Positions 4,592 to 16,320 are shown, counted from the first letter of the stretch. The stretch is DNA of 64,000 bases from Bacteroidota bacterium (GCA_026709065.1 JAPOTS010000100.1:15625-79624); one strand, 5' to 3'. Translations and numbers: made by a program. The notes: a model not told the origin generated them from the letters alone.

Positions 4592-4664
4592 TTGCCCCGC
4601 CAGGATTCGAACCTGAAACCTCCTGGTCCAGAGCCAGGCGCTCTGCCAATTGAGCTACAGGGCA
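4592..4664 (-). tRNA. tRNA-Gln (anticodon CUG)
   Basis: Manual cloverleaf on the minus strand: acceptor TGCCCTG/CGGGGCA with the U1:A72 pair typical of bacterial tRNA-Gln, D arm GCTC-AATTGGCA-GAGC, anticodon arm CCTGG-CTCTGGA-CCAGG (CTG anticodon), T arm TCAGG-TTCGAAT-CCTGG. It is 73 nt and CCA is not encoded. Confidence 0.9.
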
Positions 4665-10262: not shown

Positions 10263-11175
10263 GATTTAGGGATAAGTTTTCAATACAGTGATGCCAAGAA
10301 GTAAGCTCAGATTAAGATATGGCTTCGGACATCATAAACGCTAAACATCAATAGCATGTTGCTTTATGGACCTAATTTGATTCTTGAACCCACAGTGCTA
10401 AAGCATATTTCCCTAAATTCCCATCATGCACCTTATGATGATGCGTCAGCGAATTGCTAAACTCATTACTGTATACTTTACTGCATGTGACTCTTCATAG
10501 TGTCAGCGTTGTGTTCAATAATTTGATGTGATTCAATAACATCCTGTTCAAAATGATTTAATTTAGATCAATTAACTTTTAATTCGTGACACAAGAAATG
10601 AATCTATATGATAATATATCACAGAGTTACGTGTGGAATGGCCGAAGAACGATGATATGGTTGCTAATGTGAGCCTTGATGAGATAGCGTTAATTCTGGG
10701 GAATCAGTCTGAATATGTTCATCAGATTAACCATCTAGCAAATTGATTCAAAGAAGTTATTGGATTGAAATGATAGGCTTGTGATCTTAGATGCAGACGA
10801 TCTATTATGCGTTGGCAAGTGGGTGAATCTGACCCGATTTTGAACCATGATGTCCATGGTTCACCATATCATTTCATCAATTGATATTACACTTTATGGT
10901 TGATCAGTGTTTACGGTTAATGTCAATCAGAAGACTCCAGTATGAGTTTTCCAAGAAAGTCAATAATTGTGTAGGAATGAATATATTTAGATACGATGTG
11001 GTTTCCCTTGTTGTTGCTTTCTGTTGAAGAGGCACTAATATCAGTCCGATCAGTTTTATTTTTACAAGATCTCTGTTAAAGTCATCAAAAGATGTTAATT
11101 TTGTAGAAATTATCTCAGAATAATCAATTAGTATCATGATCCTATAGGTGCAAGATTTAATGCATCATAGTTATC

Positions 11176-12432
11176 GTGAAATCTTCAAGATTTACCAACC
11201 GTCATCTTATGAGTCAAAAAAAATTCATTGATCTTTTCGCTGGCTGTGGTGGTCTGTCCCTTGGACTAGTCAAGTCTGGTTGGAATGGTGTTTTTGCTAT
11301 TGAAAAATCAGAAGACGCGTTTAAGACATTTCACACTAATTTTTGTCAAGAACATTCAAAACTGCATTTTAAGTGGCCTTCTTGGCTACCCCTTAGGGCC
11401 ATGACAACCCAACAATTACTCACGCAATTTCCTAAACAGCTCAACGACCTCAAAGGAAAGATTGATATGATCACTGGGGGACCTCCATGTCAGGGATTTT
11501 CATTGGCAGGTCTCCGTAATCCTAATGATCCAAGAAATGAACTCATACAAGATTATATTGCAGTGGTCAGAATTGTTCAGCCAAAATTAGTACTCTTAGA
11601 AAATGTCAATGGAATTAACATGAAGTTTCCTCATCAGGATTCCCCTTATTCAATAAAGATTCAAAATCTACTGAAATCTTGTTCTGATCATGGTTACAGA
11701 GTTCATTCATCCATGTTGAATGCATCTGCCTTTGGGGTACCCCAGATGCGCAGTCGTTACGTCATGATTGCCATTCGTGGAGACATGCCCAAATTATTTA
11801 ATAATCCTTTCGATTCATTAAGCGACGCATTACCTCGTTTTCTTAAAGTAAGAGGACTCACTGGCGCAGAAACGATGGTGCGAGACGCGATAAGTGACTT
11901 AGAAATCAACGATCGAAAACTTAAATCCAGCGTTGATACACCTGGCTTCTTCCAGATCCCCTACGATGAAAAACATTCTCTCTCCACTTATCAACAGTTG
12001 ATGCGTCAAGACGTTGGTAAAAATTTTGAACCAAATAGCCTACGTCTTGCAAATCACCGAAAAGAAACCCAGTCTCGTTTCCAGAGAATTTTGCATGAAT
12101 GTCCCAAAGGAGTCTGCATGTCAAAAGAGGATCGTAAGAAATTTGGGTTAAAGAAACAATCTCTTACACCACTGCATCCCGAAAAACTAGCCGGAACAGT
12201 AACAACCATTCCTGATGATATGATTCACTATCACGAGCCAAGAGTTCTCACGGTTCGCGAAAATGCTCGACTTCAGTCATTTCCTGACTGGTTTAATTTT
12301 GAAGGGAAATATACCACGGGAGGGCATCGTCGCAGGCATGAATGTCCCCGCTATACACAGGTTGGAAATGCCGTTCCACCTCTGATGGCCGAAGCAATTG
12401 GTGAAACTCTACTCCATTTATTGGCCTCATGA
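11176..12432 (+). CDS. dcm: DNA (cytosine-5)-methyltransferase
   Basis: All canonical C5-MTase motifs are present in order: I FAGCGGLSLG, IV GGPPCQGFS, VI LLENV, VIII QMRSRYVMIA, IX RENARLQSFPDWF, X GNAVPP. The likely real start is the ATG at 11209 (MSQKKFIDLFAGCGG). The stop overlaps the next start (ATGA at 12429-12432). Confidence 0.95.
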   Translation: MKSSRFTNRHLMSQKKFIDLFAGCGGLSLGLVKSGWNGVFAIEKSEDAFKTFHTNFCQEHSKLHFKWPSWLPLRAMTTQQLLTQFPKQLNDLKGKIDMITGGPPCQGFSLAGLRNPNDPRNELIQDYIAVVRIVQPKLVLLENVNGINMKFPHQDSPYSIKIQNLLKSCSDHGYRVHSSMLNASAFGVPQMRSRYVMIAIRGDMPKLFNNPFDSLSDALPRFLKVRGLTGAETMVRDAISDLEINDRKLKSSVDTPGFFQIPYDEKHSLSTYQQLMRQDVGKNFEPNSLRLANHRKETQSRFQRILHECPKGVCMSKEDRKKFGLKKQSLTPLHPEKLAGTVTTIPDDMIHYHEPRVLTVRENARLQSFPDWFNFEGKYTTGGHRRRHECPRYTQVGNAVPPLMAEAIGETLLHLLAS

Positions 12433-14735
12433 ACGAATCTAAGAATCTTAGATTTATCGCCCATGCGCGCTTGAAAGATATTATTGGACGAGGTCTCATT
12501 AATAATGACAACATTGCAATAATTGAGCTGATCAAGAATTCAAGAGATGCAGAATCTGAGCATGTTTCCATTAAATTTCATAAACCGGGTATTCTATATA
12601 TCTCTGATCATGGGGAGGGAATGTCCATGGAGGATATACGATATAAATGGCTCAATATTGCTTATTCCGCTCGCAAAAATGCAGATCCTAATCACCCTAA
12701 AATATATGCGGGTAATAAAGGAATTGGACGATTCTCGTGTGACCGTCTTGGCAAAAAACTGATCTTGTATACACGAGCTAAGAACGGTCAATTCATTACA
12801 TTAGAAATCAACTGGCCTGATTTTGAGCAGGACAGTCGTGATATAGAAATTGGACACATTGAGACGGAGGCTAGGTTCATCACACCCAAAGAATTTCAAC
12901 AACAGACAAACATTAAACCTTTTGATCATGGTACGGTACTTGCCATCAGTCATCTAAGATCTGATTGGACCGAGGATAAACTCAAGTCACTAAGACGGGA
13001 ATTAGAGAAGTTTGTGATTGCCCCCGCTGAACGGTTTAAAGTTGAACTTTACCACCATGGGTTTGATCAAGATCATGAGATCAATGGTCCCATTGAGAGC
13101 AAGATTTTTGAACTGCTAGGTTTTAGAACATCATCCATCAGTGCCAAAATAGATGAAACCGGAAACGAAATTCATATATCGCTCCGACATGATGGTGACT
13201 ATATCTTTGAATCTACTGAGAAAAACTCATATTCTCAACTCAAGAATATTAAGGCAATTATCTACTTTCTCAATCAACCCGCGAAGGCTTTCTTCAAACG
13301 CTATACTGGATACCATTCTGTTGAATATGGATCTATTTTTTTCTTCTTGAATAAATTCAGAGTATTCCCTTATGGCTCAGAAGGGGATGATTGGCTTGGC
13401 ATTGATCGCCGCCGACAACAGGGACAGATGCGCTTTTTTGGTACCCGTGATCTCGTTGGCTTCATTCAAGTGGATGACCTTGAAGATCAGTTTATTCCGG
13501 TGTCCAGTAGAGAAGGACTGATTCACAATACGGCGTACCATGAACTTACATCCATAAGCGCTGATGTACCCTCATCGCTTGATGATACAATGCAGTATGG
13601 CTTATTCCATAAAATCATGAGAAAACTGGAAAAATTCGTGGTTAATGGCCTAGACTGGGACCGAATTAAACGATCCGGCATCACTGAAGAAAAATTGATT
13701 ACTGGCGAGTTTGAATATCTGCATACCCATAGACCTGTATTTGAGACAATCGACTCCATTATTAAGCTGCGTTCCTCAACTGAGAGTATAATCGATTATA
13801 AAATCAATCTCTCACATCTTTCCAAAATTGCTCATCAGGAGACAGAGCAATTTGAGAAATTAGTTGAAGGATTGAAAGAAAAATTTGCAGGATCCTCTAT
13901 TGATCAAATCAAACCACATGAAAAACGTAATCTCTCAAAATTTATTAGTCGTCTGGCGAAGGAATTAGCTGCTAAAGAGCAAACCACCGTAGAATTGGAA
14001 AAAAAAGAAGCAGCCGCAACAAAGAAGTTAGCCACCGAACAGAAGCGTCGCTTATTTGCCGAATTTCAAAGTAGTGTTGATCAAAGTCGCATGCTACAAC
14101 TGCATCATCAGATTAACTTAATTGCAGGTTCATTATGGAAGCGATTCGATGGTATCGCACGTCGAGAACGCAAAGATCCTGATCAGTATTCAAAGGGAGA
14201 TTTACTTGAAGTAATTCACTCGGGCATTTTTGAGATTAATCGTATAAGAAACGTTACGAAGCTTGCATTGAAAGCCGATTTTGACCTTATGACCAATAAG
14301 GTTAAGGTAGATCTAATCCAATTTATTCAGGAATATCTCGAAAATTACAAAGAAATTCTCTCGGCATGGAATCTAAAAATGAGATTTACTAACGAAGACT
14401 CGGTGCAACTCATCAAATCATTTCGCCCCATTGAGGCTACTCTTCTTATTGACAATTTATTGGTCAATTCTGGCAAAGCTGATGCCGATACAGTGTATGT
14501 TAATGTTTTTAAGCACACCGGGAAAACAATCATTGAATTTGTTGATAATGGCAACGGATTAACGGATCGCTTTGAGTATTCGGATCTTTTCGAAAAAGGT
14601 ATATCTACGACATCGGGGGCAGGAATTGGGCTGAATCATTCCCGCGAGATTGTTCTGAATCTTGGCGGTATAATTCAGATTTCTAATGCGAAAAACAATG
14701 GTGCGAAAGTCACGATATCGTTTGACAACACATGA
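12429..14735 (+). CDS. Dual Bergerat-fold (GHKL) protein: N-terminal MORC/Hsp90-like ATPase module, central coiled coil, C-terminal histidine-kinase-like DHp+CA module
   Basis: N-terminal module: ELIKNSRDAE (ExxxNxxDA N-box), DHGEGMS (DxGxGM), GNKGIGRFS (GxxGxG). C-terminal module: LQLHHQINLIAGS (candidate H-box, H559/H560), DNLLVNSGKA (N-box, about 117 aa after the His), VDNGNGL (G1), LFEKG (F), GAGIGLNHS (G2). A Lys/Glu-rich coiled-coil stretch lies around LAKELAAKEQTTVELEKKEAAATKK. Confidence 0.75.
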   Translation: MNESKNLRFIAHARLKDIIGRGLINNDNIAIIELIKNSRDAESEHVSIKFHKPGILYISDHGEGMSMEDIRYKWLNIAYSARKNADPNHPKIYAGNKGIGRFSCDRLGKKLILYTRAKNGQFITLEINWPDFEQDSRDIEIGHIETEARFITPKEFQQQTNIKPFDHGTVLAISHLRSDWTEDKLKSLRRELEKFVIAPAERFKVELYHHGFDQDHEINGPIESKIFELLGFRTSSISAKIDETGNEIHISLRHDGDYIFESTEKNSYSQLKNIKAIIYFLNQPAKAFFKRYTGYHSVEYGSIFFFLNKFRVFPYGSEGDDWLGIDRRRQQGQMRFFGTRDLVGFIQVDDLEDQFIPVSSREGLIHNTAYHELTSISADVPSSLDDTMQYGLFHKIMRKLEKFVVNGLDWDRIKRSGITEEKLITGEFEYLHTHRPVFETIDSIIKLRSSTESIIDYKINLSHLSKIAHQETEQFEKLVEGLKEKFAGSSIDQIKPHEKRNLSKFISRLAKELAAKEQTTVELEKKEAAATKKLATEQKRRLFAEFQSSVDQSRMLQLHHQINLIAGSLWKRFDGIARRERKDPDQYSKGDLLEVIHSGIFEINRIRNVTKLALKADFDLMTNKVKVDLIQFIQEYLENYKEILSAWNLKMRFTNEDSVQLIKSFRPIEATLLIDNLLVNSGKADADTVYVNVFKHTGKTIIEFVDNGNGLTDRFEYSDLFEKGISTTSGAGIGLNHSREIVLNLGGIIQISNAKNNGAKVTISFDNT

Positions 14736-15649
14736 AACTTTCGTACGATATTCTTTGGGTTGACGACAATCTTGATTCCATTGCGGAAGACCGAAGGACT
14801 ATTGAAGAATTTCTTGAGGGTTTTGGGATTTACGCCAATATATCACCTGTGACAAATTCAGATGACGATTTATTGAATGAGCATATTCACAATCCTGATC
14901 TTGAAATTCTTTTAGTTGATTATCACATGGACGACATGGATGGAGCAGATTTAATTAATCGTATTCGTCAAACGAATCATGTGTATTTGCCCGTCATCTT
15001 TTACTCTTCAAGTCCTCTTGAAGTCTTACTCAAAGCGGCAAATGAAGCACAACTTGATGGTGTATACATTGCACAGAGAGACTTTTTGATCCAGAAATTT
15101 CAAGATGTCGCTAAAAGTCTTCTCAACAAGGAACATACCATCAAGCGTATCCGCGGTTTATTGATGGAGGAAGTCAGTGAGATTGACGAAAAGTTACAAG
15201 AGATCTTCCGTATGATATGGAATGGGCTCTCGGGTAATAACAAGAAAGAATTGATGATTTATCTCAAAGATAAAATCATTCAGCAGCGGGCAGATAGTGC
15301 CAATAAAAAGCTTAAAAACTTCCCCAACACCGTTGATGATTTTTCACAGCATATGAGTGAGCGATTTTTATCAAAATCATACGATACTTATACCAGATGT
15401 AGAATCGTAAATAAAATGCTCGGATTCAAGAATAATAATTTAGGTGAGTATAAACAAGTTTTTAAGGAGTTCTTTAACCATGGTAACGAGGATTCCATTA
15501 ATCGTCTTCGAAATAATTATGCTCACACTCCGCTTCGGACTTTGAAACAAGCTCACTCTTTAGAGAACTGTGTGAAAATTCGTAAAGAATTACATCGCCA
15601 ACTCAAGAATATTAATCGTATCATTGATTATCTGTCTGCAGAACCTTGA
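14732..15649 (+). CDS. Receiver (REC) domain protein with C-terminal alpha-helical HEPN-like domain (putative phosphorylation-gated RNase effector)
   Basis: REC motifs: WVDDN (acidic pocket D11/D12), ILLVDYHMDDMDG (phosphoacceptor D63), VIFYSS (S/T position). The C-terminal roughly 180 aa look helical and carry RLRNNYAH (R260-H265, nt 15509-15526), which matches the HEPN Rx4-6H / RNxxAH signature. The start overlaps the upstream stop (ATGA at 14732-14735). Confidence 0.6.
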   Translation: MKLSYDILWVDDNLDSIAEDRRTIEEFLEGFGIYANISPVTNSDDDLLNEHIHNPDLEILLVDYHMDDMDGADLINRIRQTNHVYLPVIFYSSSPLEVLLKAANEAQLDGVYIAQRDFLIQKFQDVAKSLLNKEHTIKRIRGLLMEEVSEIDEKLQEIFRMIWNGLSGNNKKELMIYLKDKIIQQRADSANKKLKNFPNTVDDFSQHMSERFLSKSYDTYTRCRIVNKMLGFKNNNLGEYKQVFKEFFNHGNEDSINRLRNNYAHTPLRTLKQAHSLENCVKIRKELHRQLKNINRIIDYLSAEP

Positions 15650-16320
15650 GCAATTCTTGGTTCAAATTCATTGGTGTAATTTATGACTACCTATCCGCTA
15701 TTTATTACAAGAGATTCATATATTCAACATGGATTTTCCAAGTTGTCCTGGTCGCTTATCTTTATCCAATCACCATGTTGGTCGTTGATCCGTCTTAACG
15801 TTTCTTCTGTTAGAGGGTTTTTAGTCAAACTAGCGATTTAGATGTGATTAAACTTGTTTACAATCTTGACAAAAATCATCCTGTTATCAAGACATGGTGT
15901 TCATGTAGCAACGGCTTGATCGTTTGTTGATATCTATACGAAGATCCCACACAGGATCATTGATTTGAGAAAAGTTATTCGAGTCAAATGCGTTGATCGC
16001 CATAGTAACGGGTTTGAAAATTAGGTTATGCCCTCCTATCAATACAAAGGGCCCCATCAGATCCATTCCAACGATACGTTTGGACGATTGAGTCCATACC
16101 AATTCTCAAATTTTAGCAAAAACAGCTATTACGGGCAAAATAAAGGCAATGAATCAATGAGGCGTAACTTTGATAAATTTCTAGATTCAGATGTAATGTC
16201 CATAGTTGACGGTATACCAAATAATATACCCCTTAGGATCTTAAAACCAAATTTGGTAGTATCGTATGGATAGGGTCTTCAGATCAGTTAATGATTCTCT
16301 GATGATGACCCTGAGAAGAA

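Follow-up and report, generated by a model that had tools for sequence, protein, structure and literature searches.

A conserved three-gene cassette of a Bacteroidota bacterium linking a C5 cytosine DNA methyltransferase, a GHKL-headed histidine kinase and a receiver protein with a HEPN-like domain: a candidate phosphorelay defense module

A 64,000-nucleotide stretch of DNA from a Bacteroidota bacterium (GCA_026709065.1 JAPOTS010000100.1:15625-79624), hereafter called the window, carries at positions 11,176 to 15,649, counted from its first letter, three adjacent genes that encode a Dcm-type C5 cytosine DNA methyltransferase, a soluble protein with a GHKL ATPase head and a histidine kinase tail, and a receiver protein with an all-α output domain. 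The three genes are one conserved unit that has been co-inherited across phyla. The system is real, widespread and well conserved; its architecture is known from earlier bioinformatic work, and the assignment of the output domain to the HEPN RNases is not yet secured. On balance, the cassette is favored to be a self-contained and horizontally mobile module of defense or abortive infection, in which DNA methylation gates a phosphorelay.

An open reading frame (ORF) scan of the window confirmed three plus-strand ORFs at exactly 11176-12432, 12429-14735 and 14732-15649, and the ATGA stop/start overlaps by which the original prediction had joined these same-strand genes were both found in the sequence. 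As read from this arrangement, the genes form a single, translationally coupled unit, the features of which are as follows.

11176-12432, plus strand: gene 1, Dcm C5 cytosine DNA methyltransferase, 418 residues if read from a GTG codon
12429-12432, plus strand: ATGA stop/start overlap of genes 1 and 2, sequence CTCATGAACGA
12429-14735, plus strand: gene 2, 768-residue soluble hybrid protein matched by both PF13589 and PF02518
12486-13049, plus strand: Bergerat-fold GHKL ATPase head of gene 2, residues 20-207 (NF050001 restrict_BbrUII, 3.5e-22; PADLOC REase_II, 5e-8)
13050-14060, plus strand: middle region and predicted helical linker of gene 2, residues ~208-544, conserved, a candidate sensor or DNA-binding module
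14061-14732, plus strand: DHp and CA ATP-binding domain of gene 2, residues ~545-768, predicted phospho-acceptor H560 (codon 14106-14108)
14732-14735, plus strand: ATGA stop/start overlap of genes 2 and 3, sequence CACATGAAACT
14732-15112, plus strand: REC domain of gene 3 (305 residues in all), residues 1-127, predicted phospho-acceptor D63 (codon 14918-14920)
15113-15649, plus strand: all-α output domain of gene 3, residues 128-305 (the C-terminal 178), with the motif R260-N-N-Y-A-H265 at 15509-15526 and E134-x3-K138 upstream of it

Linkage of the three genes was assessed in a sample of 80 metagenomic and 39 viral-contig loci, supplemented with individual look-ups, in which all ORFs were scored with hidden Markov models built for this analysis. 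The counts refer to the close kinase clade (85 non-redundant loci, 30-100% kinase identity), and each denominator is the number of loci with enough sequence. A gene of the gene 3 type lies directly downstream of the kinase gene in 64 of 71 loci, 44 of them with the identical 4-nucleotide overlap. Of 70 loci, 64 have Dcm immediately upstream in the same orientation, and 69 have it at some position. The junction of Dcm and kinase most commonly consists of a short overlap of stop and start, 4 nucleotides being the most frequent length (16 loci). A single locus, L006, has no Dcm within 10 kb, and its kinase and effector are intact.

In one homolog, protein P0102 (L005:2732-5905), methyltransferase and GHKL kinase are fused in a single 1057-residue ORF with a gene 3 homolog after it, a “Rosetta stone” arrangement that, as an argument from gene architecture, supports a direct functional link between the two. 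An exhaustive profile search at E ≤ 1e-10 recovered the full-length receiver-effector of ~300 residues in 946 representative clusters (50% identity), and this family of more than 900 clusters extends over Bacteroidota, Rhodothermota, Proteobacteria and Cyanobacteria. The original prediction had proposed that homologs of the 768-residue protein be surveyed for company of the other two genes; given these receiver and Dcm frequencies and the methyltransferase-kinase fusion, co-occurrence outside the window genome is clear.

Gene 1 is, by profile and motif, an ordinary C5 cytosine methyltransferase with all catalytic motifs, as had been claimed for it. Its product is matched by PF00145 (E 1.9e-60, 205 bits against a cutoff of 22) and TIGR00675 (E 6.7e-47, 160.7 bits against a cutoff of 100.65), and the best PADLOC match is MTase_II (1.6e-83). 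Motifs I (FxGxG), IV (PCQ, with the catalytic Cys105), VI (ENV), VIII (QxRxR) and X (GNAVPP) are invariant in an 11-member alignment of methyltransferases linked to the system, which form one tight clade with a mean column identity of 61%, the target-recognition region being included in this conservation. The start was revised: ATG 11209, which gives 407 residues, is probably the true one, since the public gene call begins at the equivalent internal ATG and homologs begin there in the alignment. In agreement with the original prediction, a scan that included the flanking ORFs revealed no restriction endonuclease, other nuclease, Vsr or helicase gene within or adjoining the operon. The locus does not qualify as a classical Type II restriction-modification (R-M) system, as no nuclease domain was found in gene 2, gene 3 or the flanking ORFs and the only restriction-enzyme likeness is the family relationship of the ATPase head.

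Gene 2 had been described as a MORC/Hsp90-type head joined to the DHp and CA domains of a histidine kinase, and this description is borne out by PF13589, NF050001 and an alignment to the kinase HK853. In the search for homologs, in which scoring was confined to the 8000 candidates that shared the most words with the query, 1448 proteins were retrieved at E ≤ 1e-5; the best 120 share the gene 2 architecture, some truncated entries excepted. Conservation was read from an alignment (A2) of 29 sequences with a mean column identity of 54%. HATPase_c_3 (PF13589) spans residues 28-169 of the head (E 3.8e-22), where E33/N37/D40, D60-x-G62-x-G64, the GxxGxG-like K97-G-I-G-R-F102 and G168-T169 are invariant, Glu33 being the catalytic residue. 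The nearest solved structures, as found with the family profile, are TRAP1/Hsp90 (3e-7) and MORC2 (4e-4), and the head is nearer to the N-termini of restriction enzymes (3.5e-22) than to MutL (1.8e-5). These matches point to an intact GHKL ATPase of the paraMORC/HgiDII type that looks catalytically competent. The middle region has many invariant columns of its own, which include N308-x-F-R...P314-Y-G, D321-W-L, R361-E-G and G407..W410.

In the C-terminal part of gene 2, HATPase_c (PF02518) spans residues 671-766 (E 2.7e-14), and positions 561-769 of the family profile align with both DHp and CA of HK853 (2c2a; E 1.1e-11). The invariant H560 falls on the phospho-histidine of HK853 (“ISHE”). H559 and H560 had both been put forward as phospho-acceptors; H560 is the single invariant histidine in the alignment, whereas H559 is not invariant, and the assignment is narrowed to H560. 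The N box (D675-N676..N680), G1 box (G708, G710), F box (F721) and G2 box (G730-x-G732-x-G734) are invariant or nearly so, with G710 conserved in at least 90% of sequences. Judged from these conserved residues, the tail is a complete HisKA-type transmitter.

The N-terminal part of gene 3 scores 30.5 bits against PF00072, for which the cutoff is 30.2, a borderline match. REC is matched by all 40 of the close homologs and by 55 of 69 distant ones. Within the close family, D12, D63, S92 and K122 do not vary, and the acidic pair D11/D12 is conserved. An AlphaFold (AF2) model of gene 3, with a mean predicted local distance difference test score (pLDDT) of 86.6, shows a (βα)5 receiver fold, and Foldseek with this model matches the receivers of PorX and CheY at E 2e-5 to 1e-3. 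Taken from sequence and model together, the N-terminus is a complete receiver with intact catalytic residues.

A reference analysis of HEPN domains gives their signature as Rx4-6H with Asn, Asp or His after the Arg, often with an upstream Ex3(K/R), the motif closing a helix that precedes the last one. The output domain of gene 3 contains all three elements (RNxxxH, Ex3K and helix-end placement). The close gene 3 family shows no variation at R260, N261, Y263 or H265; in relatives at 21-33% identity (108 sequences overall), R260 and H265 still do not vary and N261 is kept in at least 90%. Upstream, in E-H-T-x-K, all gene 3 homologs aligned have E134 and at least 90% of them K138. In the predicted model, the RNxxxH motif lies at the end of helix 256-265, just before the last long helix. 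Colinear sub-threshold matches to HEPN_RiboL-PSP were obtained for 9 of 108 members (E ≤ 0.01), the best reaching 26.5 bits against a cutoff of 28.4, and one family member has a sub-threshold match to Abi_2. From motif and profile together, the output domain is probably a HEPN-type RNase, an assignment that is not established.

Several results weigh against this assignment. Every Pfam HEPN match is below the gathering score, such matches occur in ~9% of members, and the window protein itself is unmatched. The isolated C-terminal model (pLDDT 88.1) gave no significant Foldseek match, and no HEPN structure, in PDB or BFVD; the best E value was not below 0.7, and Csm6 appeared only at E 2.5. The full-length model returned REC matches only, and a gene 3 profile search of PDB sequences found no relative. 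Because neither fold nor profile searches gave confirmation, the HEPN call is kept at the level of motif and sub-threshold matches. The earlier description of gene 3 as a receiver fused to a HEPN-like domain is upheld for the receiver by profile, fold and residues, and its second half is plausible but has no fold match. The output domain matched no DNA-binding family.

The output of the system is exchangeable among relatives. In 7 of the 71 close-clade loci, the receiver-HEPN gene is replaced by a ~230-residue receiver without RNxxxH together with a conserved gene of 212-241 residues. The latter has an F(I/M)GHG motif and a weak, sub-threshold likeness to the clan-CD caspase-fold peptidases C25 and C13, and may be a separately encoded protease effector. 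A distant clade with the same kinase architecture has at least five unrelated receiver-linked C-terminal domains, all without a Pfam match; its carriers are 43 Campylobacter plasmid records (mostly conjugative), one Enterobacter plasmid and many IMG/VR viral contigs. The Campylobacter case carries a convergent dcm gene.

Variant-output loci, with a short response regulator and the 212-241-residue gene: L056:8388-9718, L061, L068, L072, L077, L084 and L095:8607-10036
Distant-clade examples: L009 (Campylobacter jejuni plasmid NZ_CP092024, 6007-10460 of the locus), L008 (Enterobacter mori plasmid) and L097-L130

The position directly after gene 3 is also occupied in a recurrent fashion. A ~146-residue HAD_PNKP gene (E 2.7e-33), which usually overlaps gene 3, stands there in 11 of 55 loci, and the same position holds a calcineurin-like phosphoesterase (Metallophos) in 5 of 55 (e.g. 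L075:4509-5273), Vsr in 5 of 55 (e.g. L049:4987-5508) and an EndoIII-type (HhH-GPD) glycosylase in 4 of 55 (e.g. L030:7721-8401).

HAD_PNKP gene examples: L003:13218-13658, L007:13250-13699, L133:13224-13670 and eight other loci

An active C5 methylase is usually accompanied by Vsr or an EndoIII-type glycosylase for the repair of 5-methylcytosine deamination, and that their genes recur downstream indicates that Dcm is active in vivo. HAD_PNKP-type and calcineurin-like phosphatases, which are unrelated in fold, are the two known kinds of RNA/DNA 3′-end healing enzyme (T4 Pnkp, bacterial Pnkp). HEPN RNases leave 2′,3′-cyclic phosphate ends, according to the reference analysis of HEPN domains. 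The presence of end-healing phosphatases would fit an effector that leaves such ends, and a role as phosphatase of the phosphorylated receiver is equally possible.

Gene 3 is disrupted in some population variants with an intact kinase and methyltransferase, either by truncation with loss of the receiver or by a frameshift split: L004 (12653-13189, receiver missing, compared with L003:12232-13221) and L022 (2427-3351). Such copies would be expected if a toxic effector is now and then inactivated, but errors of assembly could equally give rise to them.

By the preferred reading, the cassette would be an R-M-like module that has exchanged its DNA-cutting arm for an RNase reached through a His-Asp phosphorelay. 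Dcm would methylate a fixed site on host DNA and so mark it as self. The head and middle region of gene 2 would serve as an ATP-driven dimeric sensor of unmethylated incoming DNA, or of interference with methylation; sensing would lead to autophosphorylation at H560, and the phosphoryl group would be passed from H560 to D63 of gene 3. Dimerization of the receiver might then pair two HEPN-like domains into a composite, metal-independent RNase site, and the resulting RNA cleavage would arrest the infected cell or degrade phage transcripts. In many relatives, the downstream gene of polynucleotide-3′-phosphatase type (HAD_PNKP or calcineurin-like) could reset the system, either by healing RNA ends or by removing the phosphoryl signal.

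As a proposal, the sequence of events put forward in the original prediction (a methylase that marks self, a GHKL/kinase sensor, a phospho-receiver and an RNase) is still the model that fits best. A more far-reaching claim is offered tentatively, namely that the family may represent an as yet unvalidated class of immunity in which a restriction-derived GHKL-kinase detects unmethylated DNA and signals to a receiver-HEPN protein, or in sister loci to a receiver plus a caspase-like protease, leading to RNA degradation or abortive infection with a Pnkp-type reset.

PrrC, encoded with EcoprrI, is the classical case of an R-M-linked HEPN RNase. The present system resembles PrrC and RloC in that a latent HEPN-type RNase would be tied genetically to DNA modification or restriction as an RNA-directed second arm. 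Products of PrrC-type RNases are repaired by Pnkp-type phosphatases (PrrC/T4 Pnkp), and a HAD_PNKP gene recurs beside the present system. The likeness has limits: PrrC is kept inactive through its direct association with the Type I enzyme until a phage peptide activates it, whereas control here is proposed to be exerted by phosphorylation of a fused receiver, and the methylase partner in the present system, a Type II-style C5 enzyme, stands alone, with no restriction endonuclease. R-M-linked HEPN RNases have been proposed to act as a suicidal backup arm (reference analysis of HEPN domains).

In Detocs (Rousset et al. 2023), defense is driven by a phosphorelay that comprises the kinase DtcA, the buffer receiver DtcB and the receiver-PNP effector DtcC. 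The use of a His-Asp phosphorelay as immune switch, as proposed here, the fusion of a receiver to a toxic effector and the exchangeability of the effector domain are shared features. In contrast to Detocs, the sensor here is a GHKL ATPase head rather than the Detocs sensor region, the effector is HEPN-like rather than an ATP nucleosidase, and a DNA methylase partner, which Detocs does not have, looks obligatory; no Detocs model was matched in PADLOC. Detocs and the suicidal-backup proposal are the precedents for phosphorelay-based defense and for an R-M-linked HEPN RNase, respectively. Detocs, Olokun and other named systems were rejected as identities for the cassette, a lone weak OloA match not being reproduced by the family. 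Apart from the OloA match, the only matches in PADLOC-DB v2 were MTase_II and a head-only REase_II, and genes 2 and 3 match no system. The GHKL-headed Type II enzymes of the BbrUII-HgiDII type (Iyer, Abhiman & Aravind 2008, PMC2292703; NF050001) have a homologous head (3.5e-22) and a C5 methylase partner; the likeness ends at about residue 207, as gene 2 has no nuclease domain and its C-terminal half is a histidine kinase transmitter.

The closest description in the literature is that of Bellieny-Rabelo, Pretorius & Moleleki 2021 (PMC8011034), who reported 644 loci in which a C5 methylase gene precedes that of a soluble kinase (HATPase_c_3 + HEF_HK + HATPase_c), next to which a Response_reg_2 protein is encoded; linkage was 91.6%, there was R-M enrichment, and the kinase was derived from paraMORCs. 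That purely bioinformatic work assigned no output domain and proposed a role in R-M regulation. The order of genes and domains is the same as here, from C5 methylase through a soluble HATPase_c_3/DHp (conserved His)/HATPase_c kinase to a receiver-like gene beside it, often with Vsr after that gene, and both have paraMORC and R-M contexts. The families differ in that the H-box here is HHQ, not HE(F), and that the receiver carries a conserved RNxxxH HEPN-like domain. PF19191 (HEF_HK) was not matched by the window kinase, by seven distant-clade kinases or by the best 120 homologs, and PF19192 (Response_reg_2) was matched by none of 108 receiver proteins, most of which match the canonical PF00072; there was no positive control for either model.

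These negatives were obtained with two independent Pfam versions. Membership in the PF19191/PF19192 families was rejected for every clade scanned, and the clade may be a sister family or simply lie outside narrow models. The term “undescribed”, used of the system at the outset, was overstated: there is no PADLOC-DB v2 match, but the layout was described bioinformatically in 2021 for sister families, without an effector, and is functionally uncharacterized.

Conflict or mobility genes adjoin the cassette in 9 of 10 independent genomes examined, the window copy being the exception. The neighbors in the nine are as follows.

L001: TOTE system
L002: Type I R-M, GmrSD, transposase
L003: AbiE, SLFN-type helicase, GIY-YIG
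L006: TerB proteins
L007: PIN, Fic, HigB
L131: integrase, Macro
L132: HNH, Zeta toxin
L133: TIR, caspase
L134: integrase, HerA-like ATPases

On the Rhodothermales chromosome OZ242367 (L001:4958-8691), the triad is directly downstream of two TOTE-domain genes (TBP-TOTE, S1CSD-TOTE-2, DUF7017), with an IrrE-like peptidase gene upstream of it and AAA and Metallophos/SMC-like genes downstream, surroundings that look like a dense defense island. Some cassette copies are on IMG/VR viral contigs. No full-length match to the close clade was found in PLSDB or INPHARED, where plasmids carry distant-clade kinases only (Campylobacter, Enterobacter). The expectation that homologs would be found in defense neighborhoods holds for these relatives and not for the window copy, which stands among housekeeping genes.

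The latter is one of several points that weigh against a defense module, beside those given above for the HEPN domain. In the window genome, the cassette is placed among PhoX, LVIVD, MatE and respiratory genes, with no defense or mobility genes nearby and a modest dip in G + C content. The middle region of gene 2 (~208-544) matches no known Pfam, NCBIfam or PDB domain, and a role for it in reading DNA or methylation is conjectural. The absence of Dcm within 10 kb in locus L006 means that methylation may be dispensable. The buffer receiver that prevents autoimmunity in Detocs has no counterpart here, no extra receiver ORF being present in the operon or its flanks. No experimental study of any member was found in the literature on MADS, DefensePredictor, BREX diversity, WASA V. 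cholerae or systems predicted by natural-language processing, and PMC8011034, the only published analysis of the architecture, favored a regulatory role.

Much of the evidence for defense would serve equally for selfish addiction by post-segregational killing, in which the methylase is the antidote and loss of the cassette or of methylation lets the kinase detect unmethylated host sites and unleash a toxic receiver-effector, thereby stabilizing the element. The methyltransferase linkage, the methyltransferase-kinase fusion and the mobility all suit this explanation, R-M systems are known to act in this way (as discussed in PMC8011034), and the disrupted gene 3 copies in L004 and L022 are consistent with a toxic gene. 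The two explanations are inseparable by sequence, and most R-M-like systems do both. That L006 keeps an intact kinase and effector with no nearby Dcm argues against an antidote role, and clustering with many bona fide defense systems suggests selection for immunity; addiction as the explanation is considered unlikely.

A regulatory two-component system is judged quite improbable. Here, the soluble kinase would sense an intracellular cue, such as nucleoside triphosphate pools or DNA damage, and the helical domain would regulate R-M, methylation or stress genes by binding, with no RNA cleavage. This is the interpretation of PMC8011034, in which Pectobacterium homologs were induced in plant infection or competition, and it gains from the failure of the fold search to place the output domain among nucleases and from the housekeeping surroundings of the window copy. 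Against it stand the lack of a DNA-binding family match in the output domain and the invariance of R-N-x-x-x-H and Ex3K down to 21% identity. A patchy spread across phyla beside integrases, transposases and defense genes is atypical of housekeeping regulators, sister clades swap the output for unrelated domains, and polynucleotide end-healing phosphatases recur downstream.

Very improbable is a genome-maintenance module in which a MutL/MORC-like GHKL head senses T:G mismatches or lesions arising from Dcm methylation and triggers a checkpoint-like response through the receiver: heads of the gene 2 type are indeed related to MutL and MORC, and Vsr or an EndoIII-type glycosylase directly follows gene 3 in 9 of 55 loci, but Vsr/Mig-type genes accompany C5 methylases generally with no need of a kinase link, most loci (the window included) have neither, the head is nearer to restriction-enzyme N-termini than to MutL (3.5e-22 vs. 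1.8e-5), and the defense-island context and effector swapping are left unexplained.

The setting of the operon in the window was examined in addition. As had been noted, the two longest stretches of the window that are poor in ORFs, of 913 and 671 nucleotides, lie on either side of it.

10263-11175, no strand: upstream ORF-poor gap, 913 nucleotides, 34.5% G + C
10904-11137, minus strand: 77-residue ORF divergent from the methyltransferase gene, the only ORF credited to the upstream gap, no Pfam match
15650-16320, no strand: downstream ORF-poor gap, 671 nucleotides, 36.7% G + C, no fourth gene in the window copy

The G + C content of the operon is 39.3% compared with 43.3% for the rest of the window, and 12 of 239 equal-sized windows are equally low. 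The dip, which had been noted at the outset as fitting horizontal acquisition, is real but modest. No flanking direct repeats, nearby tRNA or integrase were found at the operon borders in the window. A tRNA-Gln(CTG) gene at 4592-4664 (minus strand) is the sole RNA gene detected in the 64-kb window; lying apart from the operon, it does not suggest itself as an integration site.

The upstream gap presumably holds the promoter or regulatory region, and a search of it revealed no tRNA, Rfam family or significant repeat. The 77-residue ORF is annotated as a gene on public contigs that share the same context, and may be spurious. A 37-residue ORF at 10633-10746 (plus strand), reading ...VSLDEIALILGNQSEYVHQINHLAN, looks by eye like part of an Xre-type helix-turn-helix. 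Small HTH_3 genes are found upstream of the methyltransferase gene in L003, L007, L013/14 and L133. The 37-residue ORF was rejected as the remnant of a helix-turn-helix controller, as it has no detectable similarity to the genes of this kind in L003, L007 and L133.

In the downstream gap, where many relatives have a phosphatase, Vsr or glycosylase gene and the window copy has none, there is a terminator-like hairpin at 15943-15958, of a kind no commoner than expected by chance. Promoter and terminator scans of the window locus gave counts not above chance. Public contigs with the identical protein have the same three genes in the same housekeeping surroundings (PhoX and the 77-residue ORF, then LVIVD, MatE and respiratory-complex genes).

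Beyond the literature of 2021, the present analysis adds an effector assignment, a quantified three-gene linkage, effector swapping and the recurrence of end-healing phosphatases. Defense annotation currently misses the family, since it is absent from PADLOC-DB v2. The system is tractable, with three genes and clear sites for point mutants (C105, E33, H560, D63 and R260/H265), and a kinase responsive to DNA methylation could serve as a biosensor. If the proposed model is true, the cassette would be the second phosphorelay-based defense family after Detocs and the first coupling of epigenetic self/non-self marking to two-component signaling, and it would indicate that the sensor module of a restriction enzyme can be rewired to another output, be it an RNase or a protease.

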